Assembly (NCBI RefSeq): GCF_056746865.1
Contig: NZ_JBWKMP010000002.1
Direction: 5' to 3' (one strand)
Origin: a plasmid
Length of the DNA: 64,000 nt
The position numbers were made by a program, and so were the translations under genes. Shown here one piece after another: positions 631-34,104 of the stretch. The notes under the pieces were generated by a model. It was not told where the DNA came from. It worked only from the letters and a program-made list of their open reading frames with translations, and searched no databases. The stretch's first letter is position 1. Every line of letters begins with the position of its first letter.

Positions 631-657
631 AAAAAGGGGCCTAACGGCCCCTTCTTC
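631..657. terminator. Bidirectional rho-independent terminator between convergent genes
   Basis: GC stem GGGGCC / GGCCCC with a 4-nt loop, flanked by an A-run on one side and a T-rich tract on the other; sits between the stops of the 19..627 (+) and 656..3844 (-) ORFs. Confidence 0.7.
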
Positions 658-3600
658 AATATTTCGGCAACTGCTTGCCCGTAACCGGATCCAGCGTAGT
701 TGAACCTACCTCACATATGGCCGGTCGAGGTAAATAGCTACAATCTACATTTTCCTCTTTTATAGCCTGAGCATTTTCTTGTCTGGCCTTTATCATATTT
801 TCTTCACCGCCCATTGCTTCCTTGGTACGTTCTGATGGAAGTTGATAGTTCTCATTCTGGAATGGTAAGTTTTCCACAATTGATTCTTCGGAGAATTTTG
901 AATATTGATCAGGAACTTCTCCTACCTGAACTGCATCATTAATCCACTCCGTCAGATCAATTTTATCGAAATCCAGTTGCTGTATTTGCTTTATTGATAG
1001 CCCCACGCAATTAGAGGCGACAGGGTCTATTCCTAATTGCGGATAAGCTTGTTGCATAATAACGCGTGACAACATGGAATTATAACAGCACATGTCTGTT
1101 GCTTTTTTAACGCATTTCTTTGTGAAACCAACATTCAGATATTTGACGCATCGTTCCGTATCTAATGTAAAACAGGATTTTTGATTCTTATGAATAGAAG
1201 CTTCCATCTCTTTCTGGTCGCATGCTACCAACATTTCTAAAAGCATTTTAGTGACCTGATAGGCTGTATAAATCCAACCGATCACGTTTAATGCAAGCAT
1301 AAAGTTTTGAACCGCAGCCGAGAAGACAACCTCTCCTCCGGTAGTAGCAACGTTCTTAAAGACAAAGTCTCGAACTGTATCTGGTAGCAATTCGTAGGCT
1401 TTCTTCATTGCCATCTGCTTAAGCTGACCTATACCGAAGCTGGACATTGTTTCCTGTGCCAACTGGCCAGCACCTCCTGCCCCTCCAGAAGTTGCGGAAG
1501 ACCCAACTGCCCTGCTTAGATTACCAGCGACGTTTTCATATACGCTCGTTAAGGAGCTCGTGACATTGTTCCACATTTGCCCTACTGTTTTACCAGCTGA
1601 TGCAGTCCACTCACCGACCGCATTGGACATAGAAGCCCATGTACCTGTATCACCGCCGGTCCATTTTATTAGCTGAGCATTAACTCTGGTCCAGTTAGTG
1701 TTTCTGATCATAGATCCGGCAAGCATGATACCTTCAAGTGCTCCTGCGGTTCCCTGCGGTGCTTCGCAGCAGTCCGTCTTTGCCAGGCCATTTACAAAGC
1801 CTACTGAACGACCACACCATTCAGGTTTTCCTTCAAAGACAGAACAGGAATTGGCATCGTTAGGGTCTTCGCATTTGGCTTCGCCCTGCATGTACTGAAC
1901 CATGTTTGAATAAGCCGCAACTTTTCCAAAATCGTTGTTCTCTTCCTTTGGCCCAGTTTCGCATGTTCCTCCAGAACATGGGATCATGCCAACACAGGCA
2001 TTTGTAGAAGATTCAACCTCACGAACTACATCCTTACCTCTGTCACAGGTGTATTTCTGTTCATACATGTAGCAGCTGTTAGTGCCCTCATCGAACCAAC
2101 CCTCTGCACATGTTTGTTTATCGAGTACACATGCTGCATCATTTTTATAAGAACTACATGCATCAGGCATACTCTTAATTTCTTCGTAGTTGTAACAGAG
2201 GTCCTTTCCATTAGCGTCTTTCATAATTTTCCCACTGGCGTCATAAGAGCAAATCTTGTCTTTAGCCAATGGATCACAAAAATAGCCTTCAAGGTTAGTC
2301 TTCCAGGTAAGAAAGCCTTTATCGCCTTCATACAGCGGCTTTGCCATAGAAAGCACGCTTTCCGGAAGCCGCTTCGTGCCAACATCCATATCTTTAAACC
2401 GATCGAAACGGCAGAATGTATTTGGTGTTTGTACAGCATCGTAACAACCAGCTGGTTCCTGGACGTGCTTATCTTCGAGCTTCATATTTTCAAACGTCAG
2501 CTCAACCTCAAAGTACCCTTCACCTCCCCCACCAACCCAGACTCTGGATGCCATTGTCACTTCACGATCAGGTTCTTCATAAACTGATTTTCTGACCTTT
2601 TCAGTTACATCGTATACTTTGTCGAGTTTCCACGATTTTTTTAACTCCCAAGATCCCTTTGGAGCCGGATAGTCACTTTCTCGATATGCACCATCTATGT
2701 GAGCAAAAATCTGCGTGCCATCAAGTGTTACCCGCATGTGGTCATCCCACTCCGCGTTAACAATCTTTGCTGAGGCCAATTTTGCATCCGGATGGAATTT
2801 TAATGTCAGTTCGTTATCAAATACCCCGTCACTCCAGTAGTTGTCATCACGGCGACCAAACCATATACGCACACAATTATCGCCGCACATCGACATGTCT
2901 CCGTTTCCGCCTGAAATGTATACAGGAACAGAGAAGTCACGAGTTATCGTGCAGCTGCTGAAGTTATCTTGCTTAGGCGAGTTACAGTAGAACTCTTTGT
3001 AATCAGGATAGTGTGTGGTTATTGTTTTTTTGGAGGTCTCAACATTACAGTTCTGAAGCCAGTTTCCAGTACCAGCAACAGCATTGGTTATCTCATTTCT
3101 CCCCGCAGTAAACATGGGATCGTTAGGCTTTACAGACGATGCCGGGTTGTCCTTGTTAGCATTTACGAGGGTGCGGTAGGCAACGCCATCATAACTTTGA
3201 GCATCAAATAACTGGCTTTTCCGATTCTTTATATCGTTAACAAAGCCATCCTCATCCCCATAACGATCTGCGGCGTTGAACTTTATATCGCTGTGCTTTT
3301 GCTCTGAGCTGAAAATCTCTCCCGTATTTGTTTTGGTTCCAGGAGTAGTATTGGGATTACTGCTTATACCAATGTTGCCATTAGCATCACGAGAGAGCAG
3401 CTTTGCCCCTTCCTTGGTGTAGTTTGAATTGATTGTCCCTCCAGACATACTCGGCAGTTGTACGGCGCTACCAATAGACTTTCCATCGGATGCGGCATTT
3501 TTCATGACACTTTCATTAGAGTTCCCTGCCCCATACTTCCCGAGATTAAGATTAGCGGATTCGGCTTTACCCACGTATTTCTCGGTGATCTTCCCACTGA

Positions 3601-3844
3601 CATTCTCGCCTGAATCCGCGTTCTTGTATTTCTCCACAATGTCCTGAGCACTGGTGGTTGCATTGCGATTTGCGTTAGGATTTGCAAGGTTAAAATTATT
3701 TTCGAGCTGGTCAAATATAGCGTCAGCAGCGTAAACACGTGGTGTCATTACCATGTTTATGAGTGTGACATAAAAAGCCCAACTCATAGTATTGGCAACC
3801 ATTGATGCAATAATCGCTGAGGTGATTGTTTTTCTAAGTTTCAC
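656..3844 (-). CDS. traN: TraN-like mating-pair stabilisation outer-membrane protein (large IncHI-type TrhN-like form)
   Basis: 1062-aa ORF with an N-terminal hydrophobic signal-like segment and a strongly cysteine-rich C-terminal half (many C-x(n)-C pairs), the hallmark of TraN. Lies immediately downstream of TraU/TraW/TraF-like genes in one minus-strand operon. Confidence 0.7.
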   Translation of the reverse strand: MKLRKTITSAIIASMVANTMSWAFYVTLINMVMTPRVYAADAIFDQLENNFNLANPNANRNATTSAQDIVEKYKNADSGENVSGKITEKYVGKAESANLNLGKYGAGNSNESVMKNAASDGKSIGSAVQLPSMSGGTINSNYTKEGAKLLSRDANGNIGISSNPNTTPGTKTNTGEIFSSEQKHSDIKFNAADRYGDEDGFVNDIKNRKSQLFDAQSYDGVAYRTLVNANKDNPASSVKPNDPMFTAGRNEITNAVAGTGNWLQNCNVETSKKTITTHYPDYKEFYCNSPKQDNFSSCTITRDFSVPVYISGGNGDMSMCGDNCVRIWFGRRDDNYWSDGVFDNELTLKFHPDAKLASAKIVNAEWDDHMRVTLDGTQIFAHIDGAYRESDYPAPKGSWELKKSWKLDKVYDVTEKVRKSVYEEPDREVTMASRVWVGGGGEGYFEVELTFENMKLEDKHVQEPAGCYDAVQTPNTFCRFDRFKDMDVGTKRLPESVLSMAKPLYEGDKGFLTWKTNLEGYFCDPLAKDKICSYDASGKIMKDANGKDLCYNYEEIKSMPDACSSYKNDAACVLDKQTCAEGWFDEGTNSCYMYEQKYTCDRGKDVVREVESSTNACVGMIPCSGGTCETGPKEENNDFGKVAAYSNMVQYMQGEAKCEDPNDANSCSVFEGKPEWCGRSVGFVNGLAKTDCCEAPQGTAGALEGIMLAGSMIRNTNWTRVNAQLIKWTGGDTGTWASMSNAVGEWTASAGKTVGQMWNNVTSSLTSVYENVAGNLSRAVGSSATSGGAGGAGQLAQETMSSFGIGQLKQMAMKKAYELLPDTVRDFVFKNVATTGGEVVFSAAVQNFMLALNVIGWIYTAYQVTKMLLEMLVACDQKEMEASIHKNQKSCFTLDTERCVKYLNVGFTKKCVKKATDMCCYNSMLSRVIMQQAYPQLGIDPVASNCVGLSIKQIQQLDFDKIDLTEWINDAVQVGEVPDQYSKFSEESIVENLPFQNENYQLPSERTKEAMGGEENMIKARQENAQAIKEENVDCSYLPRPAICEVGSTTLDPVTGKQLPKY

Positions 3845-3862
3845 TTATTTTCTCCTTAGAAA

Positions 3863-5023
3863 TCAAACGCCTGGAACGTAGCGAACACAACAGTCATTGT
3901 AACGCCACAACATATAGACATAATTATCGTTGCCTATTTTTTTGCGCCCACCTTTAAGGGTTGACCAGTCGTGTACCGAATCACCAAGACGATGACAGCA
4001 ATCCGGTCCCTTCGCCTCAGGAGTAGGGAAAAGCATTGAAAGCCGATACTGGGAACGTGGTGTAAAGTATTCCCACGTTTTCTCACACATTGCGTCTGCT
4101 CCCATCGTTCGCATCAGCATGCCTTGGCGATGTAGTTTTGTCAGAAGACGCTGGGTAATCAGTGAACTCGTCCTTACAGCGTCATCATTTGCGTAAATGT
4201 GGCCGGTTAATGGGTAAAGGTTGCCATCGCATCCGGCACAAAAGTATGCAGCGAGATTATCCTTTCCTGCTGTTACTGCTACACAGTCAGCAGCGCACAC
4301 CATTGAGGCAATTGGGTTTGCAAAAACTACTGCCTCGGGATTCAGGACGAGTGTAAGCAGATCACTTTCCCACATAGGGTCCACTTCGCTTATATAGGTC
4401 AGGCTGGCATCTATATAGGGTTCAGCAGTGCACTCGCCAATAATCAGTAATTTGAGCATTGTCATGATTGGGAACTCCCAAAGATGAACATCGTAAAATC
4501 CGGCTTCAGTTGCTGTCATTGGCTGATTAGTGTTGCTTTTACCAATATCAAACTGCGATTTTTGAAGCATCGTGCCTTCAAGAAAGGGGCTGCACCAGGG
4601 GCTCTTTACAACTTCTACAATCTTCACCGGCTGAAAGAAGCTCAATTGCCAACCTATTTCCGGTACGCCGTTCTGATCTGTGCAGTAGCAACCCGGACGT
4701 GAAGGTGCAGCGCCTTCTGGAGCAGCCCCTATGCCCATTATCCTCATGGGAAAAATGCAGCTCCAACAGATATTCTTAATCAAGCCCTGCCACACTCCAG
4801 CTGACTGACACATAGCCCCAGGGACTCCAGCATCTGCTGCCATAGCCATACCAGGTATAGAAAGCGAAAGCATAACTGCTACAATGAACTCTAAAAGTAA
4901 CTTTTTGAATTTTTTCACCATCATGCTCACTTGGATGTAATAAATGTTGCAACACTTTCGATATAGTCGACGGCTTTGGTAAAATAACTTCTCATCTGGT
5001 CCGGATAATTTAGCGTCAGCCAT
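3863..5023 (-). CDS. traU: TraU-like conjugal pilus assembly protein; true start probably the internal Met near 4924
   Basis: The ORF track gives 386 aa, but a typical signal peptide (MMVKKFKKLLLEFIVAVMLSLSIPGMAMA) begins 33 residues in. Multiple conserved Cys (ICWSCIFP...), periplasmic character, and position between the TraW-like and TraN-like genes. Confidence 0.65.
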   Translation of the reverse strand: MADAKLSGPDEKLFYQSRRLYRKCCNIYYIQVSMMVKKFKKLLLEFIVAVMLSLSIPGMAMAADAGVPGAMCQSAGVWQGLIKNICWSCIFPMRIMGIGAAPEGAAPSRPGCYCTDQNGVPEIGWQLSFFQPVKIVEVVKSPWCSPFLEGTMLQKSQFDIGKSNTNQPMTATEAGFYDVHLWEFPIMTMLKLLIIGECTAEPYIDASLTYISEVDPMWESDLLTLVLNPEAVVFANPIASMVCAADCVAVTAGKDNLAAYFCAGCDGNLYPLTGHIYANDDAVRTSSLITQRLLTKLHRQGMLMRTMGADAMCEKTWEYFTPRSQYRLSMLFPTPEAKGPDCCHRLGDSVHDWSTLKGGRKKIGNDNYVYMLWRYNDCCVRYVPGV

Positions 5024-5062
5024 GTTGCAAAGAGAGCGCCTATAATAAATCCGAGTTTCATA

Positions 5063-6586
5063 TTATTTTTCCTCTGAAAGATTTGGGGCTCCGATTCCAC
5101 GGACTTCTGCCTCGCTAAACAGGGTGATCCGGAATTTATCTTGGTCAGTAGTTATAAGCGCAGGTGTATTTTTAATCTGAAAGCGTGAGATAATCTGTTC
5201 GTTTACTTTAAACACCTTACCGTTAAATTTTTCACGTAAATCATTTAGGTGATCCCATCCATTATCTTTTTGGATACGGGTAAACATTGGCATTACTTTT
5301 CCACTACCCAGACGTTGTCGATACTGCTGCTCAGCCCATACCAGCTGGCCCGGATTGAGTGGATCGAAAATTATCATCGTCAGGTTTTGAGGAAATCTCG
5401 AAAGTGGATTAATCAACTCACCGGCGGAAGCTATTACACGGCCCTGCTTATCTTTTACGTCCTGAGTGACCCTCACTGTAGGGTCAATTAAAAATTCTTT
5501 GTGTTCCTGGGCAGGAGGGAGATCGACCATCCATTGATTTTTCCAGGTGTCCGCAACGGCCCTTTTTTTTGCACCTTCCCAGTCATATTTTTGTGCGCGT
5601 TCTTCCAGTTCTTTAATGATGCTCTTTTCTTCAACGGGATAAATCGTACCAGCAACAGGAAAAATGTCCTGATCGGGTTTTTTAGCAAGTTCTCGCTGAA
5701 AAAACTCAACGTTGAAGGACCCTACCATTTTTGCAAAACGAGCTTGCTCCCGAGAAATAATTGTCGGTACTTGAGTTACTTGATACTGACTGAAGCTATC
5801 AGGATCAATTGTAATCAAAGGAGATTCAAATTTTCCTTTGACAATCATTTGGTTTATTGCTGCCTGTGTCTCTGGTAGCCGAGTAGTTCCTTTCTTTAGA
5901 CCATTGAAAACTACACGAGCTTTATGCTCTGAGGCCGTACGTAAAAGGTCTTCCAGTACATAATCCGGTAAGCTAAATGAAGCAAAGATCGTTATACCAT
6001 TTTCAGTTGATAGTGCTTCTTCACGTGTGCTATCCATTTTTCTTTCGAAGTCAGCAGCTGTGATGCCCGAGGAACCAAACAATTTTTCGATATTTTTAGA
6101 TTGTCCTCGCATGACTTCCGGCTTATTTTCCACAGCTTTCAGAGCCGCTTCATTAAGGCTGGCGTTTTCCTGAATTTCATCACGTCTTCTAATTATATCG
6201 TTGACAGCATCAGAGTTATTACTTTGGGCCCTTATAGCCTGGGTATGGTCTATAACTGCTTGAACACTATCCGCATTCATACCGGGCACGTAACCACGGT
6301 TTGTTTGCCTGCTCAGGTCCTGGTTTTTTTTGAGTGCTTCAGCTTGCGCAATGTACTTCTGCACATCTGGTGAATTTAGCGTAGCATCAAGGCTAAGAGC
6401 CCCATCTGGCTGCTGTGCACCTTTAGCCTGAGCGCCAAGCCCTTTTGCTTGCTGAGCGATTAGGTCAGCATCATGTTGATACTCAGTGCTTGCATTTGTA
6501 TTACTTAAAACTGCACATAACGCAAGTCCAGGAAGTATTGGTAAATATTTTTTATTTACATTAAAAGATCGCATATGTTTTCCCAA
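5063..6586 (-). CDS. traW: TraW/TrbC-like fusion protein (pilus assembly)
   Basis: 507-aa ORF with an N-terminal signal peptide; the size fits the TraW-TrbC fusion found in IncHI-type transfer regions. Sits between the TraF-peptidase-like and TraU-like genes. Assignment rests mainly on synteny and size. Confidence 0.5.
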   Translation of the reverse strand: MGKHMRSFNVNKKYLPILPGLALCAVLSNTNASTEYQHDADLIAQQAKGLGAQAKGAQQPDGALSLDATLNSPDVQKYIAQAEALKKNQDLSRQTNRGYVPGMNADSVQAVIDHTQAIRAQSNNSDAVNDIIRRRDEIQENASLNEAALKAVENKPEVMRGQSKNIEKLFGSSGITAADFERKMDSTREEALSTENGITIFASFSLPDYVLEDLLRTASEHKARVVFNGLKKGTTRLPETQAAINQMIVKGKFESPLITIDPDSFSQYQVTQVPTIISREQARFAKMVGSFNVEFFQRELAKKPDQDIFPVAGTIYPVEEKSIIKELEERAQKYDWEGAKKRAVADTWKNQWMVDLPPAQEHKEFLIDPTVRVTQDVKDKQGRVIASAGELINPLSRFPQNLTMIIFDPLNPGQLVWAEQQYRQRLGSGKVMPMFTRIQKDNGWDHLNDLREKFNGKVFKVNEQIISRFQIKNTPALITTDQDKFRITLFSEAEVRGIGAPNLSEEK

Positions 6587-7073
6587 TTACTGAATTCAGC
6601 TTTACTGTTCCCCAAAAACGGGAATCCCATGAGTGATCGGTTTGCCCAATTAGGAAAACTTCGCCTTCAGGAATTATCAATTCTTTTTCAATCAAAATGG
6701 ACGGAATACTGTATTTCTTTGAAATACGACGTGCATTAGCTTCAAAAAATTTGTCCCCGTTATAAACCCCATCCATTGTTACTTTGAGTTTGTCACCGCC
6801 CACACCGGCAACAATTTTTATGACTCGTTCATTTTCTGGGATAAAACGAACCGATTTCGGCATGTTGAAAGCTATGAGTTCACCAGTTTTAATAGTTTTA
6901 TCCGAATGATCAATCATATAAAAATCAGCAGGCAGGCACCCATTCAATAAACCGTATCCAAATGTATAACGGGTGAAAAAGACACACATAACGAGAATCA
7001 GCAATAAAATATTAATGGGGACATACCAATCCAGTATAAGCAGCCCTCTCTTTTTAGGTATGTAGTCGCTCAT
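6561..7073 (-). CDS. traF: Conjugative signal peptidase, S26 family (TraF/TrhP-like)
   Basis: 170-aa ORF with an N-terminal transmembrane segment and an SWDSRFWG motif matching the conserved S26 signal-peptidase box (xDSRYxG); overlaps the downstream traW-like start. Confidence 0.7.
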   Translation of the reverse strand: MSDYIPKKRGLLILDWYVPINILLLILVMCVFFTRYTFGYGLLNGCLPADFYMIDHSDKTIKTGELIAFNMPKSVRFIPENERVIKIVAGVGGDKLKVTMDGVYNGDKFFEANARRISKKYSIPSILIEKELIIPEGEVFLIGQTDHSWDSRFWGTVKLNSVIGKTYAIF

Positions 7074-7340: not shown

Positions 7341-7350
7341 TAAAAATTTA

Positions 7351-20659: not shown

Positions 20660-21089
20660 GGTTATGACCTTTTTGCACTGAAAACCGACTTTTACGCATA
20701 TATGTAAACTTTACGCATAATGCGTCCATTTCATTGTTATACGTACAATTCTATCCTTTGTTTCAATCCTAAGCTAATGTTTGTTTACTTTTTTATGATT
20801 TTTTGTGAGCTTAACTTGCAGATGAGAGCTCAGACTCTCTAGTCCTTAATGCTCATTCTTTTTAAACCACGATTCTTGTCGACTTCTCTACGCTTTGACG
20901 TTATGAGCTCCATTAATGAATCTTAGCCTACCCTATTTCTTGCTTAAGAATTTAATTCTTCTCTCACCGGTGTGCTGATTTAAGTTTTCCTAACTGTGAA
21001 TCGTTGTCGTCAGTCCAGTCTAAAGATATGAGGTGTCATTTTCTTTGAGTAGGCCCACTACGAATTATGGGAGCAAAGTTAGCGACCTA

Positions 21090-24417: not shown

Positions 24418-24452
24418 AAACCAGATTCTTATGAGACATCTGGTTTAATTGT
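24418..24452 (-). terminator. Rho-independent terminator downstream of traC
   Basis: Hairpin CCAGAT-(loop)-ATCTGG; on the minus strand it is followed by a T-run, just 3' of the traC stop. Confidence 0.6.
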
Positions 24453-24473
24453 TTTTGCTTGAAGATATTTACT

Positions 24474-27146
24474 CTACGCGGCCAAACCCGCTGCTACTTC
24501 TTGAGCATAGAGAATTTCTATTGCCTCGCCATAGCTACAATTCTCGCGGCTTTGAATTTCCCATAATTTACTCCTGTCAGCACTATCCGTAGTAAAACAA
24601 AGCTCCATTTTCCGGTCTACGTATAACCGACAGATCTCGTAAGTTTCGAACCTGACTAACATCTCTGAAAACACCTTTTTGACTGTACGAATATTTTTCA
24701 TTCGTTCATATTCTGCATCTGAAGTAGAAAAATATTTATTAGCCTTCATTGCTTCAATGCTTTCTTTTTCTTGTTTCATGATTATCTTCCAAGGCGAGTT
24801 AGCAGTCAGGGCCCGGCCAACAGAAGAAGTAAAATAATCTTCAAACGACTGTGTGATACAGATGCCAGCGCAGTTTGTTTTCCTGAACCTACGCCATGCC
24901 GCTTCGAGGAAGGAAGAGAAGAATTGGTTTGATTGATTTCCGGCACCTGATGAATTATCAGGACGAATGTACTCCCAAGCTTCATCTAGGATGAACAAGC
25001 GACGACGCCCATCTTTTTTGATGAACATTGCATGCTGAGCAGCCTGAATGATAGACATTAAAACAACTGTCTGAAGGTGGGGGGTGCCTTTTAGCTCCTC
25101 CAGTTCCAAAACAATAAATCTGCTGTCTATTGGAGGCAACGTATCGGTAAACCGGTGCCCATAAATTCCACCTTCGCACCATGCTCCGAGTTGCTCCCCA
25201 ATATCCTTTATACGTTTGTCTTCATGCTTCTTGCAACGCAGAGCAAAGCCGGTTATTGAACCGGTCCGACCTGATTTTCTGGATTCCTGGTACTCTTCTG
25301 CAATAAGCTGAAGCATCACTGATTGTTGATAATCATCGATAAGGCCTTTCTCTGAAGCCATAATTTTTAGCTGATTCAGAACCATTATGGTCTGAGCAAC
25401 TTTGTCTTTTTCTGCATCGTTTGAAGTTGATTCACCGGTAAATTCAGGTGCTTCGTTAAATACATCGTCGTTAACAGTGATGTCAGTTAGGAAGGCAAAG
25501 GGATTTAGGGTGAAGTCAGGGGTTTTACCGAAATCAATAAATTGACTGTTTGTATATTGTTCCGCAATCCCCTGGTAAGAACGCCCCACGTCCACTACAA
25601 AAACTTGAGCACCATCAGGATCATCATCTGGGTATTCGTTTTCTAAAAAATGCTTAAATGTTGAGCGATAATGAACGAGGTTATTAGATCGCGGTCCAGC
25701 TCCAAGATAGTTATTGATTAGATATGCTGTCCAGAATGACTTGCCTGCACCTGACGTTGCACCAATAACCATGTTATAGCTTGCAGAAGTCTTGAAAATA
25801 TCAAGTCCCATGAGTTGACCTTCACGAGAAACTAAACTCAGTACTGGTCTATCTGTATTACCTTTCCAGGGCCCAAAGATCGGCGTCATATGAGCCGCTC
25901 CGGTGTTGCTCACTACTTCGGATCGGTCAAGGTCGAAAATTGTCTTTGGGTCATTGCACATTGGCAGACATGACATAAATGACGGGAAAACGATAAAGGA
26001 ATCATCTGCTACTTTGACCCGGCTTTCGAGGTAAAAGGATTTGAGATCGTTAGCTGCTGTCTGCACAGAATTGGCATTACTACCCATAACAGTGAAAGTA
26101 AGATACCCTCTTAAAAGCTTTGCGCCATCCTCAAGCTCGCGAGTTACGGCCATGTAGTCATTATCCATATCCCGCAGGCGAGGGCAGAATGTGACAACTG
26201 AAGGTATACTTGCCTGTTTATTAGTGATTGCTTTGTAGCGGACGTTTTCTTTTGACAACTTGAGCGGATCGGCAAACTGAACAGTCTGAGTGATCATAAA
26301 TGGGCTGAAAATTGTCTTACGTCCATGCATCCAGTTAACTACTAACTCATACATACAACCGAAATTGACGTATTCAGGAAACTTTACAACGGAAAGTTGT
26401 TTGAAGTAACGATGCTCAGATTCGTCGTCACTTTGTGTGACTGATGAGAAATGATTTTCTGTGACTGTATACTTACGGCCGGGAACGTTAACTTGTTCAT
26501 TAAGCCTTTTCATAGTGTTAACGTCTATAAAACCTTCAGCCCACCGAGAGTTCTTTCCGGGGTTTACGACCTTATCTATACAATAGAGCCAGTTTTCTGC
26601 ATCGACCTTAAACGGATGCAGTCCAATCGTAATTAACTTACTTACAAGTTCAGAGTAAAGTGAATCGATACGCGAATGTTCCAGCTCGGTAGGAAGGGCA
26701 GACTGTAAAGGAATCGATAGCGAGATCCATACCTGAAAATCCCTCAACATAAGGTTATCATGATCAGGTTTTAAAGGCTTATGCATACTTCTGTCGTAGT
26801 AGTCCAACTGATAACCATTAAGCAGATCTGCTTTAAGCTTATCGTTCCCAGTCATACGCCCACCTCGCACAGCTGACCAAGCACTAAGCTGTAAAGTCAA
26901 GTCTGGCAATGCAGTCAGAGATATTTGACAGACAGTATCTGTAGGAAAATCCATTTTGAACATTTCAGCAAGAACATCTTGCTGATTATCAAAAACTCCA
27001 GGTGATGGATTACAGATAAACATAAACCCTAATCTGTTGCCATCAATCAAAAAATAGTGAGTCCCTGCTAATTGATCGTAAACAGGGATAAACCCACCTA
27101 ATTGATGGCGATTTAAACCGCTATTGTAATTATTGATAGCTTCCAT
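24474..27146 (-). CDS. traC: Conjugative type IV secretion ATPase, TraC/VirB4 family
   Basis: 890-aa ORF with Walker A (GATSGAGKS) and a downstream Walker B-like hydrophobic stretch ending in DEAW; size and position (after the TraV-like gene) are typical. Confidence 0.85.
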   Translation of the reverse strand: MEAINNYNSGLNRHQLGGFIPVYDQLAGTHYFLIDGNRLGFMFICNPSPGVFDNQQDVLAEMFKMDFPTDTVCQISLTALPDLTLQLSAWSAVRGGRMTGNDKLKADLLNGYQLDYYDRSMHKPLKPDHDNLMLRDFQVWISLSIPLQSALPTELEHSRIDSLYSELVSKLITIGLHPFKVDAENWLYCIDKVVNPGKNSRWAEGFIDVNTMKRLNEQVNVPGRKYTVTENHFSSVTQSDDESEHRYFKQLSVVKFPEYVNFGCMYELVVNWMHGRKTIFSPFMITQTVQFADPLKLSKENVRYKAITNKQASIPSVVTFCPRLRDMDNDYMAVTRELEDGAKLLRGYLTFTVMGSNANSVQTAANDLKSFYLESRVKVADDSFIVFPSFMSCLPMCNDPKTIFDLDRSEVVSNTGAAHMTPIFGPWKGNTDRPVLSLVSREGQLMGLDIFKTSASYNMVIGATSGAGKSFWTAYLINNYLGAGPRSNNLVHYRSTFKHFLENEYPDDDPDGAQVFVVDVGRSYQGIAEQYTNSQFIDFGKTPDFTLNPFAFLTDITVNDDVFNEAPEFTGESTSNDAEKDKVAQTIMVLNQLKIMASEKGLIDDYQQSVMLQLIAEEYQESRKSGRTGSITGFALRCKKHEDKRIKDIGEQLGAWCEGGIYGHRFTDTLPPIDSRFIVLELEELKGTPHLQTVVLMSIIQAAQHAMFIKKDGRRRLFILDEAWEYIRPDNSSGAGNQSNQFFSSFLEAAWRRFRKTNCAGICITQSFEDYFTSSVGRALTANSPWKIIMKQEKESIEAMKANKYFSTSDAEYERMKNIRTVKKVFSEMLVRFETYEICRLYVDRKMELCFTTDSADRSKLWEIQSRENCSYGEAIEILYAQEVAAGLAA

Positions 27147-27154
27147 ATTTGACC

Positions 27155-28105
27155 TTACAGTTGTCTAACAATGCCGTTCGAAGAGACAGCTTTAGTTGCT
27201 TTTTGTTGCTGCTGCATATTTTCCCGGGCCGCATCCTGTACTTCTAAAGGAACTATGCGAGCTGGGTTTGAGGTCGAATTCTTGCCAGCAATCCATGTTT
27301 GCGGTTTTACGTTGACATAAACGTAGCCGGGAAGATTAAGCGCATCGTTATCATCGGTATAAGGTGCAAAAGTAATTCTCATTACTTTCCCCTGTTGCAG
27401 AACAGCAAGTGGTTCAGGAGCCACTACAGCTTGTTTATAACCTTGCGAACGGTATTGCTGGATCTGCCCAGTGTTGAGAGTAGGGTTAACGGGCTGGCCA
27501 TTGTAAAGAGAGTACATATCCTTGCCAGGGCTGATATCAGAATTAGGTGCAACGTAGCGTGGTGCATTTCCAGCAGAAACCGGATAGCTTGTTTGTTTAA
27601 CGACTTCCGCAGCCGGATGAACGAAAGGGTTACCAGCTGAAGAGGCAGTGCTATAACTGCTAGTCATCCTTACGTTTGAATTAACCGGTACACCAGAAAT
27701 AGGCCGTGGTCCAATGGATGAAGTAGGGGCACCCATTTTTAAAGTTTTATCGTACATGACAGGTAACTGACCAACTGGCTTAATTTCGGTTTTTGAATAA
27801 GCCACAGGCTGATTTTTAAGGGTTGTAGACTGTGGATATTTGACTTCCCCTGGAGGGCTAATTTCAGTTGGATAACGGCTGTCATTGACAGCCGATTTCT
27901 CCTTTCCCGATTCCGACTCTTCCCCCGCAAGTGCAGACAGATCATCTCGATTATTAGTTAACTCCATAACTTCGCGAGGACCTTTACAGATAACGCCCTT
28001 TTCAATGCCTGGACATTCGGATTCGGAACTCCCGATGGAGCACCCCGTAAGATATGAGGATGTACCTACAACCAGAGCACTGAGTACCAATCTTTTGATG
28101 TTCAT
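27155..28105 (-). CDS. traV: TraV-like outer-membrane lipoprotein (extended form)
   Basis: 316-aa ORF with a lipobox (YLTGCS) and a second Cys shortly after (ESECPG) as in TraV; Pro/Ser/Thr/Gln-rich linker; located between the TraB-like and TraC genes. Confidence 0.6.
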   Translation of the reverse strand: MNIKRLVLSALVVGTSSYLTGCSIGSSESECPGIEKGVICKGPREVMELTNNRDDLSALAGEESESGKEKSAVNDSRYPTEISPPGEVKYPQSTTLKNQPVAYSKTEIKPVGQLPVMYDKTLKMGAPTSSIGPRPISGVPVNSNVRMTSSYSTASSAGNPFVHPAAEVVKQTSYPVSAGNAPRYVAPNSDISPGKDMYSLYNGQPVNPTLNTGQIQQYRSQGYKQAVVAPEPLAVLQQGKVMRITFAPYTDDNDALNLPGYVYVNVKPQTWIAGKNSTSNPARIVPLEVQDAARENMQQQQKATKAVSSNGIVRQL

Positions 28106-28114
28106 AAACTAGCC

Positions 28115-28999
28115 TTAATTTGTCTCAAATGGATTTTTTAAGAGAGGTTCAACGCTTTGGTTCAACCAGTAGTCGAAATCTTTTGGAATGCCATTACCAG
28201 CCAAACCATCCTGTCTGACAACTGAAGGTACACCCTGCAATTTATAAATTCCTGCGAGCATCAATGACGCTACCAAAGGTTCCGCCGGACATTCTTCTGC
28301 TTCTTTTTGAGAGAGCAATCTTTTTTCAATGTCGGATTTGCTTCCCATTAGCCAACGAAGAATATCGAGGTTGTTTATTTTTCCTTTTTCTTTACTACAC
28401 CAGAGCCTTCTAAGCTCTTCTTTTGGCTCACCGGGTGAGGGAACTAAAACAATATCTATCCGATACTTGTCCCGATCTGCATAAAATTTCTTAACAAGTT
28501 CCATGCAACCGTCACAATCAAGTGTTAAGAAAATGGCTGCTTGTCTCTTAAGCTTTGAATTTCCCAGATGAATGGACGCTACAGTTTCCAGAGGGAAGGG
28601 GGCCTCATCAAGACTAATAAAATAGGAATTTCTGATTTCTTCTACAGTCAGAACAGGTTTACGTTTAATTACATCAACAAGGCTTCCCCCAGTAAGGGAG
28701 TATCGGCCATCGGTCGTTACTGCCATTAGCTGCGAACGCTCGTCCTGAAAGAGGTATAGCCCACCAGAAGGAATGTATATGGCATCCTTAGGTTTATATC
28801 CTTTCATTTTTGATAACGCACCCGAGATCTGACTGGGTGAAACGCCGCCTTCCTTTGCCTTTGCCATTAACGCAGCAGCATCACTATTAGTTAGGACCTG
28901 CTCTGAAGCATAAGTGACCGTATTCGCCATAATGGCGAAAGCCGCCATTAAAGGGAAAAGTAACTTTTTCACTATTGGGTGCCCTCTACTTCTTTGCAT
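28115..28999 (-). CDS. Periplasmic thioredoxin-fold protein (DsbC/TrbB-like disulfide isomerase); start placed at the internal Met
   Basis: The ORF track extends to 29098, but a signal peptide (MQRSRGHPIVKKLLFPLMAAFAIMANTVTYA) begins at the internal Met, which also removes the overlap with the upstream gene. A C-x-x-C motif (CDGC) is present in the C-terminal half. Confidence 0.5.
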   Translation of the reverse strand: MQRSRGHPIVKKLLFPLMAAFAIMANTVTYASEQVLTNSDAAALMAKAKEGGVSPSQISGALSKMKGYKPKDAIYIPSGGLYLFQDERSQLMAVTTDGRYSLTGGSLVDVIKRKPVLTVEEIRNSYFISLDEAPFPLETVASIHLGNSKLKRQAAIFLTLDCDGCMELVKKFYADRDKYRIDIVLVPSPGEPKEELRRLWCSKEKGKINNLDILRWLMGSKSDIEKRLLSQKEAEECPAEPLVASLMLAGIYKLQGVPSVVRQDGLAGNGIPKDFDYWLNQSVEPLLKNPFETN

Positions 29000-29468
29000 T
29001 ATAAGAACTTGATTGTACCGCTTCAGAGCTATCTTCAAGTTCCATATAAGTGACGATTTCAACACTATCCGGTACAGTAACGGCAAGCGTTGCATCAATA
29101 ATTAAATAGCCACGGTCACGGTAGATCTTCATTAATGTTCTGAAATATTCTTCGAATTGAGTTCTATCATTGTCAGCAGTACGGCCTCCGTGATGCTTGA
29201 AAAATTCCTTACGTAATTCAGGCATGTCAAGCACTGCAATCTTGTACGAAGGCTGTGATTGTTTATTGAAGTAATCGTAAACATTCATAAAGCCTTTATA
29301 ACCATAAATAATGACCAAAACGGCAAAGGCGAAGAAAAATAAATACTTCAATATTTTTTCAATATCAATTTCGAAGGTAATTTTTTTTGTTGTCCTTTCT
29401 CGCACCATTTTTTTAGTGATTTCAGGTCCAGCTGATTCAGTCGATTCTTTTTTTTCTAAACTATCCAT
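28986..29468 (-). CDS. Small membrane protein of unknown function
   Basis: 160-aa ORF with one clear hydrophobic segment (YLFFFAFAVLVIIYGY); lies within the tra operon. Confidence 0.4.
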   Translation of the reverse strand: MDSLEKKESTESAGPEITKKMVRERTTKKITFEIDIEKILKYLFFFAFAVLVIIYGYKGFMNVYDYFNKQSQPSYKIAVLDMPELRKEFFKHHGGRTADNDRTQFEEYFRTLMKIYRDRGYLIIDATLAVTVPDSVEIVTYMELEDSSEAVQSSSYNAKK

Positions 29469-29475
29469 TTAAACC

Positions 29476-30843
29476 TCAGCGACTGGTCAGATTCGTTGGA
29501 ATTGTAGTTCCGGTCTGAACGACAAATGTAATAGCTCGGCCAGGGCTAATTTCTACGATTGGCCACTGTTGTTCTGCAATTGCGGTGTAGTAATCGACGA
29601 GTCGATTAAGGCCACCTTGAGCTGCACCAGCCCCGGCTAATGCCCCAAGTGCACCAAAATTAGGGGACTGATACTGAGCCTGTGAATTAGGGTCGATGTT
29701 AAGTGAAGATACCTTACTGGGGCTTAAGCTACCGGCAAGTGAAGAAAGTCCACCGGCAAATGCAGCTCCTGCAATTGCGTTACCATTTCGGCTGATAAGC
29801 GTGCCTCGGATCCCATTTTTTCCGTCATTTTCACTTACAGCATATGCTTCCAGTTTTACGTCAAAAGCTTTCCCTTTTGAATTAACACAAGAGATAGAAG
29901 TGGCACGTATGTAAGCACGCTGTGACGCCAAATCACCAACAGCTGAACCCAGAAGGTTACAGTCACGCAAATCCATGGTGAAATTATTGGGCATGATGAC
30001 ATCTTTTTTAATACGCATTGTTACTGGCATTGGTTCTGATTTGGAAGAAAGGCTTGTAGGCGCTTCAAGCCCGGTAATCAGAACACCAGTGATAATAGAT
30101 GTTGCCGGAAGAAACATTTCATCTTTTCGGGCAGCATGCCGCGCTTTGCTATCAACTGGCGCAGTACCATCACCTCGTACAGTCCGAGTAGGCGCTTTAT
30201 CTCCTGCAATGACCTCTCTGCCTTCCTTGATTCTGTTTTCAGACACGGGCATAACCTGAATGACACCATCGGTACCATTAGTCTTAATGGAACTTTGTGT
30301 GATTGTTCTCATCGGGCTATTACGCGTAGGTGTGATAGACGCGTAATTAGGGTTTACGCCATTAATCGGCGCATTAGCATTAAGCTGATAAGGAGCTGCC
30401 GGTGCCTGCTCATTAATCGTTTTACGCGAACTACCAGCATCCAAGTTACGATTGCCGTTTCGATTAGTCTGCATATCATTAATTTGCTGAGACAGTTGCT
30501 GAAGTTGAGAAGTTAAACTTGCAACTTGGGCTTTAGTTTCCTGTTGGGCTTTTTCTGCTTTTTCGCGGTCCTCTTTCGCCGCATTTTGATCAAGTCGGTT
30601 TTGCTTAACCATTTCCTTATATACTTTCTGGCTTTCTTCATTACTCAATTTGTTCATTTGCGAATCATCTAACAACAAATTGGTCTGCATGTCTTTTTTC
30701 TGTGTTTTCTTTTCTTTCTTAACTGGTGTGGAAAAAATAGACTGGCTAATAATATAAACAATCACTACCAGCAGAGCGCCAATAACAGAAAGTCTGACGG
30801 TCTTATTTTCCCAGGCCTTTTTAATGTCCATGATTAGCTCCAC
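29476..30843 (-). CDS. traB: TraB/VirB10-like mating-pair-formation protein
   Basis: 455-aa ORF with an N-terminal transmembrane segment, a coiled-coil/charged region (Gln/Lys/Glu-rich), and a Gly/Ala-rich C-terminal domain; size and position typical of TraB. Confidence 0.55.
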   Translation of the reverse strand: MELIMDIKKAWENKTVRLSVIGALLVVIVYIISQSIFSTPVKKEKKTQKKDMQTNLLLDDSQMNKLSNEESQKVYKEMVKQNRLDQNAAKEDREKAEKAQQETKAQVASLTSQLQQLSQQINDMQTNRNGNRNLDAGSSRKTINEQAPAAPYQLNANAPINGVNPNYASITPTRNSPMRTITQSSIKTNGTDGVIQVMPVSENRIKEGREVIAGDKAPTRTVRGDGTAPVDSKARHAARKDEMFLPATSIITGVLITGLEAPTSLSSKSEPMPVTMRIKKDVIMPNNFTMDLRDCNLLGSAVGDLASQRAYIRATSISCVNSKGKAFDVKLEAYAVSENDGKNGIRGTLISRNGNAIAGAAFAGGLSSLAGSLSPSKVSSLNIDPNSQAQYQSPNFGALGALAGAGAAQGGLNRLVDYYTAIAEQQWPIVEISPGRAITFVVQTGTTIPTNLTSR

Positions 30844-31282
30844 TTGTAGGTTTCTGGAATCGTTTAATTTTTAGATTTCGTTCGCTGTCAGACATCTGAG
30901 GAACGATATAGGGATCACCTGCTCTGGCCCAGTTTTCACGAACAGATGGATGATTCATTTCAGCTTTATCTATCTGGCTCGTTCTAGATATTTCATGTTT
31001 GTAATTAGGTTCCAAAACGTTACTTTTGTGATAGTCAAAAGCATTCTCCTCATTAATATTGTCCTCTCCTACAAATTTATCAATAAGAGTTGGATCGTTC
31101 ATTATTACTGTCTGAACGGGAAAAGCGTTACTGCCATCTTCGATACTAATGGGTGCGTCCGGAACGATTAATACACTCCTTTTTGGTATATATTCTGACC
31201 TGTAGTAAAAGCTGGTTAAAGCAAATACGACAAAACCAATCACGGTGGCCCCAAGCAGAGCAGGCAAAGTAACTTTTCCCAT
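30821..31282 (-). CDS. Small membrane protein
   Basis: 153-aa ORF with an N-terminal transmembrane segment (LLGATVIGFVVFALTSFYY). Confidence 0.4.
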   Translation of the reverse strand: MGKVTLPALLGATVIGFVVFALTSFYYRSEYIPKRSVLIVPDAPISIEDGSNAFPVQTVIMNDPTLIDKFVGEDNINEENAFDYHKSNVLEPNYKHEISRTSQIDKAEMNHPSVRENWARAGDPYIVPQMSDSERNLKIKRFQKPTSGANHGH

Positions 31283-31283
31283 A

Positions 31284-31769
31284 TTATTTTCTGATTAGAC
31301 TTGGTCTGGTTGTAACCCGGGCCTCGCGTTCCTTGAACAATTTATCCCGGACTATGTAAAGCTCTGTTTCTTCTCCCGGTTGCAGGTATGCTTTATCAAA
31401 TAAAGCACTTGCAATAACGCCTTCTGCCATACACTGCTGATCAGCAACGATTTGACCGTATGGTTTATCGTTTTTCACAAGAATTACATCAATAAGTTCA
31501 CGTGAGCCAACCAGTCTCTGACCGAGCTTTGCATACATATTAAAGTTACATGGGGACTGCTCTGACGCAGGAATACGAGAAAGTCGGTCCTGTTGTAAAC
31601 TGAATCCTGAAGGGACCTCACCAAGAGCCACAGGAGTCAATAAATCAATGATTCTTTGTTTATGATCGTCTTGTTTTGGATCCGATGGAGCCAGTTCTTC
31701 TGACTGGGAGCGGGCCAACATTTCCTCATAGTTTTGCTTATCCAATGAGGTTTCACGTTTGGCTTGCAT
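31284..31769 (-). CDS. Hypothetical protein within the tra operon
   Basis: 161-aa ORF, tightly packed between neighbouring tra genes; no motif. Confidence 0.4.
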   Translation of the reverse strand: MQAKRETSLDKQNYEEMLARSQSEELAPSDPKQDDHKQRIIDLLTPVALGEVPSGFSLQQDRLSRIPASEQSPCNFNMYAKLGQRLVGSRELIDVILVKNDKPYGQIVADQQCMAEGVIASALFDKAYLQPGEETELYIVRDKLFKEREARVTTRPSLIRK

Positions 31770-32559
31770 AGATGGGCTTAAAGATGTCAGTAACTGAAAT
31801 CATCGCACCGGGAACATCAAGCGGTACCAGGGTCAGGTTATAGGTCGATTCAGGTACCTGATCTTCCGACAACATAATCCCGATTGGTTTATCGGTATTA
31901 GTTGAAATAAAGACATCGCCACCATTAACAAATATGCTTGCCTCTTCAGCAGGGGTAGAAGTGCTGACAGAAGCATTCTTGAAGCTGGTCGATATTCTGT
32001 TTTGAAGTCCTCGTGAAACTGGCAGTACCACATTCCCACCAGGCGGCACATTTACACGCTGAACTTCTTTATATCGGTTACGAGCTTCGACATAAAGTTC
32101 ATCGGCTTTTGACGTGGCGGTCGCATTGGTTGCATTCTGCTGGGAAGAGGTACCTGTTGGTCTCCCATAGCTATCAATTGCACCAGAGCGGGTCTGTGCG
32201 TCAAATCCGGGGAGACTAGGATTATTTGATAATGCTCCAGTAATAGCGCTTACCGCAGGCGAAGCATTGCTGGCTGGGGAAAGTTGCACGGTAGGGAGAT
32301 CAGTTGTAGGTTTTTGTCCCTGCGCATTACCGGCTTCACTAAGGTTTGTTTGTGCACCTGACTGTTCAGAACCAGCTTGACCCGGAATAATGGCTTTTGC
32401 AGCTCCATTCTGAAATCCGTCAGCACCAACTGGCATTACAACCGGGTTATTAATTGTTGCTGGCAATTGGTATTCTTCAGCGATTACGCAGTTCGAAGTC
32501 GTGAGCATGATCAATGCGGTAATTGCGTTGAACCCTAAGCCCTTTTTTTTAATCATCAC
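31753..32559 (-). CDS. Exported protein, possibly TraK/VirB9-like
   Basis: 268-aa ORF with a signal peptide (LGFNAITALIMLTTSNCVIA); position between the TraE-like and TraB-like genes matches F-type order (traA-L-E-K-B-V-C). Assignment by synteny. Confidence 0.45.
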   Translation of the reverse strand: MMIKKKGLGFNAITALIMLTTSNCVIAEEYQLPATINNPVVMPVGADGFQNGAAKAIIPGQAGSEQSGAQTNLSEAGNAQGQKPTTDLPTVQLSPASNASPAVSAITGALSNNPSLPGFDAQTRSGAIDSYGRPTGTSSQQNATNATATSKADELYVEARNRYKEVQRVNVPPGGNVVLPVSRGLQNRISTSFKNASVSTSTPAEEASIFVNGGDVFISTNTDKPIGIMLSEDQVPESTYNLTLVPLDVPGAMISVTDIFKPIYASQT

Positions 32560-33344
32560 TTGTTACCTGTAGACGGTGGCGGATTATCCAGCGTTGCCAG
32601 TTGCTCTTTGCCGTTTATCGTAATTTTTTTAATATTCGGTGTTCCGGAATATTGATTTACATATGCAATTCTTGGGCGACCATTTTTCATCCCGAGAACC
32701 CATTCATAAGTCCATTTCGATGATTCAGTTTTGTCCGGAACATTTACAAGTCGAGTCGTTTTGGTACCCCAGACATAGACCATGTCATTTTTTGGATCAA
32801 AGTAAATATCATTAGGCTTAAAGGTCTGCTCAACACCACGAGCCTGCATGATATTTATCTGCTCCTGTAAAGACTCACTCGTTTTAGCCTGTAGTTCAGG
32901 TGAAAGGGCATCGAGGACATAGGCCGTCACAAAGGAAATATTAGTTGGATTAATATTCCCTAAAAGGGTACTAAAAAAGAGAGCCCATTGTGTTTTATAA
33001 GATTCCGATGCTTTGTTACCAACAACCGTGATCTCTTCATTCATGTTTGGAGGGGTAACAATCGTCACTGGGTCAGTGAAAAAAAGAATCTTTGCAACCA
33101 ATAACCCAATGACGGCTATTGAAACAGTATTAATGCGGATAAGTTTTGTATCACGATTAATCAGGGCGCTGTATGTAATTCCAGCACCTGACGCTTCAGC
33201 TTGTGGGCTAAATCGTTTTTTAATGTCCAAAAAACGTCCCTTAGCACTTTCATCTTTCTTTACGTATGACTGTTCAAGATCACCGTTTTCATCCTTTTTA
33301 GATTTTTTGAAAAAAGGGATGTTAATGCCACTTAGCATTTTCAT
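32556..33344 (-). CDS. Bitopic inner-membrane protein, possibly TraE/VirB8-like
   Basis: 262-aa ORF with a single transmembrane segment (TVSIAVIGLLVAKILFF); position consistent with TraE. Assignment by synteny. Confidence 0.45.
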   Translation of the reverse strand: MKMLSGINIPFFKKSKKDENGDLEQSYVKKDESAKGRFLDIKKRFSPQAEASGAGITYSALINRDTKLIRINTVSIAVIGLLVAKILFFTDPVTIVTPPNMNEEITVVGNKASESYKTQWALFFSTLLGNINPTNISFVTAYVLDALSPELQAKTSESLQEQINIMQARGVEQTFKPNDIYFDPKNDMVYVWGTKTTRLVNVPDKTESSKWTYEWVLGMKNGRPRIAYVNQYSGTPNIKKITINGKEQLATLDNPPPSTGNK

Positions 33345-33355
33345 TCATAGCTCCA

Positions 33356-33706
33356 TCAAGAATACAAATCTCTGATAAATGGATCGTTGAAATAACGGCT
33401 ACTAAAAACTGCTTTACCTGGCAAAAAACCGAGCCACCAGAGTCTGTGTTTTAGCAATCCTCTTATTCCTGACTCAGCTGCTTTGTTATACGCAATCCAA
33501 TATACAACCGCTACTACAACAGAAAACCCGAAGCATTCGAAGATATTCCCAAATGCAACCAGAATGAATGCAAGCCCTATTTTTTTTGCATCCCAAAACA
33601 AAATCAGTAGAGGCATGTTGATCCTGAAAGGGAATCTATAGGTATGCTGAGGAACGTCGTTCTGCTTACTCATTAAAAATCCAGAGAGGGGGATGAACCC
33701 CCTCAT
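33356..33706 (-). CDS. Small membrane protein, possibly TraL-like
   Basis: 116-aa hydrophobic ORF immediately downstream of the pilin-like gene, as in F-type order. Confidence 0.45.
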   Translation of the reverse strand: MRGFIPLSGFLMSKQNDVPQHTYRFPFRINMPLLILFWDAKKIGLAFILVAFGNIFECFGFSVVVAVVYWIAYNKAAESGIRGLLKHRLWWLGFLPGKAVFSSRYFNDPFIRDLYS

Positions 33707-33723
33707 GCATGATTAACAATAAA

Positions 33724-34104
33724 TTACAGCGGTACGCCAGCATCCATAAAGGTGCTGATAATTTTCTCGCCGTTGGCCATTACCAGCATCATGAATAATG
33801 AAACCAGTGCCAGGCCCGGGTTAGACTTAAGGACAGAGAAATATACGCTTGAGATCAACATCGCGGCTGCCAGAATTTTGCCCGGAGCTCCAGTCATACT
33901 TTCACTCATGTATGACCAAATATCTCCCAGTGCCCCATCATCTGAACCCGCATATGCCAGACCGCAAAAAAGCACGGTCAGCAGAACAAACAAAATCACT
34001 TTTGCGCTTTTTGTTTTAAAAAGTGCAGCCGTGTTAGATTTCTTTTCACTAAGGCCAATATTTAAAGAAAGTTCCATAATTACTCCGTGTAGATTTGAGT
34101 TCAC
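33724..34104 (-). CDS. traA: F-type pilin precursor (TraA-like)
   Basis: 126-aa ORF with a long leader followed by two hydrophobic segments; first gene of the mating-pair-formation operon. Confidence 0.55.
   Translation of the reverse strand: MNSNLHGVIMELSLNIGLSEKKSNTAALFKTKSAKVILFVLLTVLFCGLAYAGSDDGALGDIWSYMSESMTGAPGKILAAAMLISSVYFSVLKSNPGLALVSLFMMLVMANGEKIISTFMDAGVPL

Follow-up and report, generated by a model that had tools for sequence, protein, structure and literature searches.

Gene organization of the Tra2 region

This study focused on positions 656-34104 of a 64,000-nucleotide stretch of plasmid DNA (contig NZ_JBWKMP010000002.1 of RefSeq assembly GCF_056746865.1), hereafter called the window, and on the Tra2 conjugative transfer genes that it carries. 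The ends of the region coincide exactly with open reading frame (ORF) boundaries, position 656 being the stop of trhN and 34104 the longest start of the trhA ORF. In the ORF map of window positions 1-36000, the region between these ends is a near-continuous series of minus-strand genes, broken by four plus-strand ORFs (15661-18343) and a gap of 3.8 kb. Read along the minus strand from high to low coordinates, the genes are trhA, trhL, trhE, trhK, htdO, trhB, a gene specifying a protein of 160 aa, htdT, trhV and trhC, followed by 3.8 kb of non-coding DNA and then by parA and parB. Beyond parB lie the four plus-strand genes of the Z operon, and after these come parM and a parR-like gene, htdA, htdF, htdK, rsp, trhF (or trhP), trhW, trhU and trhN. 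The same order is given by the ORF list, the RefSeq annotation of near-identical plasmids, the annotations of R478 and R27, and tblastn searches with R27 proteins. An earlier note, made from the letters of the sequence, had described this overall layout correctly but placed two unassigned genes between trhK and trhB, where there is only one, the other (31284-31769) being the C-terminus of TrhK. It also described parA/parB and parM/parR as embedded in the region, and both pairs are indeed present, but they are not adjacent, as the four plus-strand genes lie between them. The ORF-free stretch of 3.8 kb (20660-24473), which carries an array of 249-bp repeats, had been overlooked.

We read the region as the Tra2 of an R478-type IncHI2 conjugative plasmid, with three transfer operons, two embedded partition systems, a candidate centromere, and a set of indels that are likely errors (probability about 0.95); the Tra2 reading itself is biology that is already known. 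When the two halves of the region were compared by megablast with 72,556 plasmids (PLSDB), more than 1000 plasmid records each covered at least 80% of each half, with identities of up to 99.9%. The hosts of these plasmids are Escherichia, Salmonella, Enterobacter and Klebsiella, and most are predicted to be conjugative. The plasmid pXH990_1 (NZ_CP019356), typed as IncHI2A/MOBH/MPF_F, is collinear, with 99.76% identity over window positions 1-34970, while R478 (NC_005211), the IncHI2 reference, shows 97.1-97.6% nucleotide identity to the Tra2 region. The near-identical plasmids are typed MOBH. All 28 proteins of the IncHI1 plasmid R27 (NC_002305) from trhN to trhA have a collinear match, with amino acid identities of 41-96% (tblastn). 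Downstream of Tra2, the same window contains repHI2 (49297-50383) and a RepHI1A-like gene (35229-36101), and since the best matches are typed IncHI2A and repHI2 is present, the subgroup can be narrowed to IncHI2.

The earlier note had recognized an IncHI-type Tra2, and with it the replicon type, from the gene layout. This is borne out, and sharpened to IncHI2, by best matches to more than 1000 IncHI2A/MOBH/MPF_F plasmids and to R478 (97%), and the similarity to Trh proteins that it had expected extends to every R27 Tra2 protein. Other H-type mating-pair formation (Mpf) elements, namely IncHI1, IncHI3 (pNDM-MAR-like) and IncA/C plasmids or SXT/R391-type ICEs (integrative and conjugative elements), also carry F/H-type Mpf and DsbC-like genes, and the gene order of R27 is the same. 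That the region belongs to such an element rather than to IncHI2 is nevertheless extremely improbable, as IncHI2A-typed plasmids match it at the nucleotide level with 99.8-99.9% identity and R478 with 97%, against just 41-96% for R27 proteins, the ParB of pNDM-MAR-like plasmids shows 48% identity and is encoded outside tra, and repHI2 lies within the window. An IncHI1, IncHI3 or ICE reading is ruled out by these identity values. IncHI2 plasmids are major carriers of multidrug, colistin (mcr) and heavy-metal resistance, and their identification here accounts for nearly all genes of the window's first 34 kb. Rfam and tRNA scans over the whole window gave no matches. The conjugation of IncHI plasmids is thermosensitive, with an optimum at 22-30 °C (PMC13104618, PMC7366339).

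The Tra2 of R27 is divided into an AC operon (trhA to trhC), an AN operon (htdA, htdF, htdK, R0009/rsp, trhP, trhW, trhU and trhN) and a Z operon, with parA as R0020 and parB as R0019 (PMC7366339). Judging from family assignments (made by NCBIfam, Pfam and PDB sequence comparison, with R27 identities from tblastn; Table 1), the AC operon would supply the H-pilin, the envelope-spanning, F-type core proteins TrhL, TrhE, TrhK, TrhB and TrhV, the VirB4-type ATPase TrhC and the DsbC-like isomerase HtdT, together with HtdO and the 160-aa protein, which are small, IncH-specific membrane proteins. The AN operon would provide the repressor HtdA, HtdF and HtdK, the exported, immunoglobulin-like (Ig-like) protein RSP, a peptidase that processes pilin, and, for pilus assembly and mating pairs, TrhW, TrhU and TrhN. 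The plus-strand Z operon presumably forms an entry-exclusion unit, and the two systems placed between the transfer operons would be Par1 (parA-parB; type Ia, P1-ParB family) and Par2 (parM with a parR-like gene; type II). The Z operon of R27 codes for entry exclusion (PMC7366339), in agreement with the idea of the earlier note that the region holds an exclusion candidate.

Table 1. Features of the Tra2 region, in order of window coordinate. Percentages are identities to R27 proteins.
Feature	Coordinates	Strand	Evidence and remarks
trhN, long TraN-type mating-pair stabilization protein, 1062 aa	656..3844	-	IncHI-specific NCBIfam PRK14877, 2531 bits vs cut-off 1267; 87% to TrhN
trhU (TraU)	3863..4918	-	NCBIfam TraU E 4.6e-61; 96% to TrhU
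trhW, TrbC+TraW fusion	5063..6574	-	TrbC aa 199-282, TraW aa 311-488; 80% to TrhW
trhF (trhP in R27 papers), signal-peptidase-I/RP4 TraF-like peptidase	6561..7073	-	NCBIfam sigpep_I 52.7 bits vs cut-off 47; TraF_Ti E 5e-9
rsp, large exported Ig-like protein, 1434 aa	7351..11655	-	83% to RSP; weak Pfam Big_3_3 match
htdK homologue	11775..12329	-	52% to same-position protein; AN operon member (PMC7366339)
htdF homologue	12338..12763	-	51%; hydrophobic N-terminus (signal or anchor)
htdA, transfer repressor	12753..13206	-	82% to HtdA, in two frames; broken by extra A at 13117
parR-like adaptor (Par2), 212 aa	13610..14248	-	42% to gene downstream of parM; no family match (NCBIfam, Pfam)
parM (Par2), actin-like segregation ATPase	14260..15297	-	Pfam StbA_N E 1e-66; ParM C-terminal E 2e-60
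Z operon, four genes	15661..18343	+	33-79% to R0015-R0018 over aligned segments, with frame changes (tblastn)
Z gene 1, trhZ position, calcineurin-like metallophosphoesterase	15661-16608	+	Pfam Metallophos E 4e-5
Z gene 2, R0016-like secreted protein	16605-17442	+	Signal sequence; frameshift at 17118
Z gene 3, R0017-like lipoprotein	17435-17956	+	Lipobox LLTGC
Z gene 4, R0018-like secreted protein	17953-18343	+	Signal sequence; frameshift at 18218
parB (Par1), P1-ParB family	18405..19409	-	Pfam PF08775; three ORFs here (extra base at 18649, missing base at 19022)
parA (Par1), 417-aa long-form Walker-type ATPase	19406..20659	-	Pfam AAA_31 E 2e-20; 89% to ParA
Candidate ParA operator	20691..20725	.	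TATGCGTAAA twice plus palindrome ACGCATTATGCGT, 30-65 bp upstream of parA start
Non-coding tandem array, candidate Par1 centromere	21064..24046	+	About 10 units of 249 bp plus outlying motif copy at 24027-24046
trhC, TraC/VirB4 ATPase	24474..27146	-	NCBIfam TraC-F-type E 1.6e-128
trhV (TraV lipoprotein)	27155..28105	-	NCBIfam and Pfam TraV matches
htdT, DsbC/DsbP-like periplasmic disulfide isomerase	28115..28867	-	CDGC motif; PDB DsbP 4ML1 E 9.8e-13; DsbC 1EEJ E 0.12 (weak)
Conserved 160-aa bitopic membrane protein	28986..29468	-	Transmembrane segment ~aa 40-58, periplasmic alpha/beta domain; 54% to same-slot protein
trhB (TraB/VirB10-like)	29476..30831	-	NCBIfam TraB E 6e-34; Pfam TrbI E 6e-23
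htdO, small N-terminally anchored protein	30821..31282	-	NCBIfam NF041317 HtdO, 213 bits vs cut-off 150; 41% to HtdO
trhK, TraK secretin-like core component	31284..32556	-	Split by extra C at 31788 (ORFs 31753-32559 and 31284-31769)
trhE (TraE)	32556..33344	-	NCBIfam and Pfam TraE matches
trhL (TraL)	33356..33673	-	Pfam TraL E 1.5e-7
trhA, H-pilin precursor	33724..34077	-	65% to TrhA

Among the genes of the AC operon, three small, unassigned ORFs had been put forward in the earlier note as candidates for lineage-specific transfer components. Two of them, 30821-31282 (HtdO) and 28986-29468 (the 160-aa protein), are conserved members of IncH-type operons, but the third (31284-31769) is a frameshift fragment, so that three possible new genes become one artefactual fragment and two conserved, IncH-specific components that are functionally unassigned. 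By its alignment, the third ORF is the C-terminal 40% of TrhK and not a separate gene. The frameshift that sets it apart is private to this sequence. In tblastn, R27 TrhK (72-88% identity) is matched in one frame over aa 1-248 (32556-31774) and in another over aa 240-410 (31799-31287), and the C-terminal piece is matched by the Pfam family TraK_C, although below threshold (24.7-26.4 bits vs a gathering score of 28.5).

Neither NCBIfam nor Pfam gave a match for the 160-aa protein, and a word-based search for homologues recovered close relatives only. An exhaustive HMMER scan of 1.84 billion cluster representatives found just 17 that match, all of about 150-180 aa. A homologue of 24% identity keeps the slot between traB and htdT in a distant H-type transfer locus, the order of which is TraL-TraE-TraK-HtdO-TraB-[160-aa homologue]-HtdT-like-TraV-TraC. 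This shared slot and the R27 counterpart (Table 1) indicate that the protein is a conserved IncH-type operon member. Its AlphaFold 2 model is of moderate confidence (pLDDT 69.8) and, when compared with the PDB by Foldseek, gave nothing significant. The top match was the chaperone Skp, but with an E value of 0.1 and a TM-score of about 0.3, and a chaperone reading was not adopted.

The trhA product has no NCBIfam or Pfam family match. It has a mature part of 74 aa after a predicted cleavage site (between AYA and G), with Gly1, Asp69 and a five-residue tail, AGVPL. This predicted architecture agrees with the one published for the cyclic H-pilin (PMC11722321; PMC12667790), and an RP4 TraF-like peptidase is credited there with the cyclization. 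By analogy with that role (PMC11722321), the product of trhF is the presumed pilin cyclase. In the AN operon, the large secreted protein and the small htd-like genes of the earlier note can now be named, the former as RSP, an exported, Ig-like protein that is needed for IncHI conjugation in liquid medium (PMC6764697), and the latter as htdA, htdF and htdK, homologues of R27 genes of the same operon (PMC7366339). The HtdK homologue scores 22.3 bits against the Pfam family Whirly, a single-stranded-DNA-binding fold, just under the gathering score of 23. It is curious that the Z operon is headed by a metallophosphoesterase gene, an odd partner for exclusion proteins.

The partition systems and the tandem array between parA and trhC

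The ParB of IncHI plasmids shares 28% identity with that of P1 (tblastn) and matches the PDB entries 1ZX4 (E 3.6e-16) and 2NTZ. At the parA promoter of R27, a palindrome (TATGCGTAAACTTTACGCAT) occupies the same place as the one found here upstream of parA, and it is plausible that the TATGCGTAAA motif at the parA start of IncHI1 and IncHI2 plasmids serves as the ParA operator. For Par2, no iterated, parC-like repeats were found upstream of parM (15290-15665).

Between parA and trhC, Tandem Repeats Finder detected a 249-bp unit repeated 10.4 times (21064-23606). Apart from one ORF of 91 aa, there are no ORFs of at least 80 aa in the whole 3.8 kb stretch. Each unit of the array carries the 20-mer GGCGATTAAGGGGGTTAAAT, in 10-11 copies that share one orientation. 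Allowing up to 3 mismatches, the 20-mer is matched 10 times, where 0.01 matches would be expected; all of them lie on one strand and within 21380-24046, and there are none elsewhere in the 64 kb. R478 likewise has a 249-bp unit, arranged in two blocks, and 11 copies of the motif are present both in R478 and in pXH990_1. In R27, the interval between parA and trhC is occupied by a 52-bp unit (21.6 copies) and a 54-bp unit (5.6 copies), and despite the different period it contains exact GGCGATTAAGGGGGTTAAAT, in 23 copies of matching relative orientation. In the sense of parA, the motif reads ATTTAAC-CCCCTTAA-TCGCCA, where CCCCTTAA is a spacer of eight bases (N8). The annotated parS of P1 has box A (ATTTCAC/ATTTCAA) and box B (TCGCCA), so that the array motif matches box B exactly and differs from the box A heptamer at one base.

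The pNDM-MAR-like plasmids, in which ParB is 48% identical, provide a third arrangement: their parAB genes lie outside any tra region, flanked by Ig-like genes, and are accompanied by a 66-bp array, with 21-29 units upstream of parA and another 2-3 units downstream of parB. When units of the three lineages were aligned, the core AACCCCnTTnnTCGC was invariant and the flanks varied. Given that the repeat motif is P1-like, that an array is conserved upstream of parA, and that the motif co-varies with the P1-type ParB, we infer that the conserved 20-mer of the 249-bp array most likely serves Par1 as the centromere to which ParB binds. No P1-like parS was found in the 130 bp downstream of parB, where there is only a hairpin, and no tandem array is present in the distant H-type transfer locus.

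Other roles for the array can be imagined, such as replication-control iterons, a landing pad for H-NS or another regulator, an insulating element that separates the AC operon from parAB, or selfish DNA of a satellite-like kind. Each 249-bp unit does hold a second conserved block (21131-23564), GTCGGCAGACCGGCA...GTTAATCTGTATCAGCA...ATGGGAGCAAG, also written GTCGGCAGACCGGCA...GACGTTAATCTGTATCAGCA...ATTTCGCAT.ATGGGAGCAAG, which the 52-bp units of R27 lack; the position of the array is unlike that of P1 parS, and the centromere is itself predicted from sequence. We nevertheless consider these alternatives rather unlikely, though not negligible. Where parAB sits elsewhere, the array travels with it and not with tra or rep genes, and between IncHI1 and IncHI2 the exact 20-mer is kept though unit length and flanks differ, while the motif diverges together with ParB. 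The GC content of the array (0.44-0.49) is higher than that of neighbouring DNA, unlike H-NS targets, and a separate, 81-bp array adjoining repHI2 is a likelier set of iterons. A scan of the array region for promoters and terminators found sites to be no more numerous than in shuffled sequence.

If the array is the Par1 centromere, as we prefer, then the arrays upstream of parA, of 249 bp x 10 (IncHI2), 52-54 bp x 23 (IncHI1) and 66 bp x 20-29 (pNDM-MAR-like), could be speculated to make up one family of 'super-centromeres', each with many copies, for a partition protein of the P1-ParB type, and to act as a determinant of partition incompatibility between IncHI subgroups, one that may be undescribed. 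This extension is tentative, and the odds are somewhat against it. A text search of the literature for an IncHI array as a centromere, parS or tandem repeat found nothing relevant, but it did not cover the primary R27 and R478 papers, so a prior description is possible. For IncHI plasmids, the array represents a Par1 centromere candidate that can be tested cheaply.

The tandem repeats at repHI2 consist of an 81-bp unit repeated 9.2 times just downstream of the gene (50872-51612) and of 21-bp repeats upstream of it (48556-48613 and 48979-49057). The two sets share GACAACGGTAGTGA and are probably the RepHI2 iterons. By the annotation of pDR162-CEF-A, repHI2 is flanked by three genes, at about 45.7-61 kb of the window, whose Ig-like products are about 800 aa long. 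That Ig-like genes occur both around repHI2 and around the parAB genes and array of pNDM-MAR-like plasmids may point to a common maintenance module beyond Tra2.

Private indels and interrupted genes

Indels were called against pXH990_1 and R478, and probes of 61 bases were used to screen the PLSDB plasmids and E. coli RefSeq records. Over window positions 1-34970, the comparison with pXH990_1 shows 29 mismatches and 34 gap openings, mostly in the repeat region. Single-base indels break htdA, the R0016-like and R0018-like genes, parB (twice) and trhK (positions in Table 1), and trhC has in-frame deletions of 3 nt (at about 24640) and 6 nt (at about 25127). R478 and pXH990_1 agree at every indel position of the Tra2 region. 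The extra C of trhK was absent from all 1121 plasmids and all 275 E. coli RefSeq records screened, as was the parB insertion at 18649 from all 1126 plasmids. When the indels are reverted, ParB and the R0016-like protein show no differences and HtdA (150 aa) shows one; removal of the extra C from trhK gives a TrhK of 423 aa that is identical to the common allele, WP_000592090.1.

The same pattern continues beyond Tra2. The repHI2 gene is in two ORFs (49297-49869 and 49910-50383) as a result of a 2-nt deletion at 49797, which is absent from a plasmid of about 99.98% identity. A gene for a DUF4942-domain protein is broken by a -1/+1 pair at 43301 and 43485, which lie 184 nt apart, together with a substitution at 43298, and at 63578 a run of T is one base short. 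The pair at 43301/43485 resembles that of parB and suggests local base-calling errors.

The indels in htdA, two Z-operon genes, parB, trhK and repHI2 are most probably base-calling errors in the source record, because indels are at least as many as substitutions, some of them occur in compensating pairs, and genes for replication, partition and transfer are all hit while the background is about 99.98% identical to relatives. The alternative is that the interruptions are real, in an IncHI2 derivative that is in decay and no longer has conjugation (trhK), Par1 (parB), HtdA repression or RepHI2. In its favour, the given sequence does contain the frameshifts, and conjugation is costly, with passaged IncHI2 plasmids evolving a lower expression of transfer genes or large deletions (PMC9599605). 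Such decay is improbable, however, as none of the indels is shared by any of about 1400 related records, indel events outside the array at least equal substitutions in frequency, and two -1/+1 pairs bring the reading frame back, after 373 nt (19022/18649) and after 184 nt (43301/43485); moreover, replication, partition and transfer genes would have been hit at once in a plasmid that is otherwise about 99.98% identical to its relatives. Base-calling errors of this kind would mislead automated annotation, as parB falls into three pieces and trhK and repHI2 into two each, and recognizing them is of value in quality control.

Two other differences were noted. At the parA-proximal edge of the array (20845-21231), the window departs from pXH990_1 in a dense cluster of about 45 mismatches and indels, which could have arisen by gene conversion among the repeat units or could reflect low sequence quality within a repeat. 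At window position 45354, about 215 bp of pDR162-CEF-A (13855-14070 of the compared stretch, overlapping small hypothetical genes) are missing.

Several points weigh against the reading of the region as a whole. Tra1, with the relaxase, coupling protein and oriT, lies outside the 64-kb window, so that the conjugative competence of the whole replicon is presumed. The link between the array and ParB rests on inference from sequence, and the parS of P1 is a single site downstream of parB, whereas the array presents many copies upstream of parA. Finally, the indels could be true mutations of a decaying, non-transmissible derivative.

Comparison with known systems

The closest relatives of the region are R478 and modern IncHI2 plasmids such as pXH990_1, which have an identical content, order and orientation of genes and the same 249-bp array between parA and trhC. 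The present copy differs from them in its private indels (in htdA, two Z genes, parB and trhK), in the trhC deletions and in the cluster of differences at 20845-21231. R27, with its AC, Z and AN operons and its Par1 and Par2 systems, shows gene-for-gene synteny, shares the 20-mer between parA and trhC, and has a similar palindrome at the parA promoter, but its proteins are 41-96% identical and its repeat is of 52-54 bp with 23 motif copies, compared with 249 bp and 10-11 copies here.

In relation to the tra genes of the F plasmid (MPF_F), homologues of TraA, TraL, TraE, TraK, TraB, TraV, TraC, TraW, TrbC, TraU and TraN are all present and in the same relative order, with W and TrbC joined in one protein. 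Unlike F, the Tra2 genes are in separate operons, with partition and exclusion genes between them, and the H-pilin is cyclized and paired with an RP4 TraF-type peptidase (PMC11722321). Beyond the F set, the region contains the IncH-specific genes htdO, the 160-aa gene, htdT and rsp, and its TraN homologue is about 50% longer. Homologues of F TraF, TraH and TraG lie outside this region; in IncHI plasmids they are found in Tra1. The latter includes the F and H operons (PMC7366339).

With regard to the ParABS system of P1, ParB is homologous over the DNA-binding and dimer domains, and ParA is of the long form in both. P1 has one composite parS (box A, box B and an IHF site) downstream of parB, whereas here there are 10-27 direct copies upstream of parA. 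In its layout, the candidate array is closer to the tandem sopC of F than to the parS of P1.

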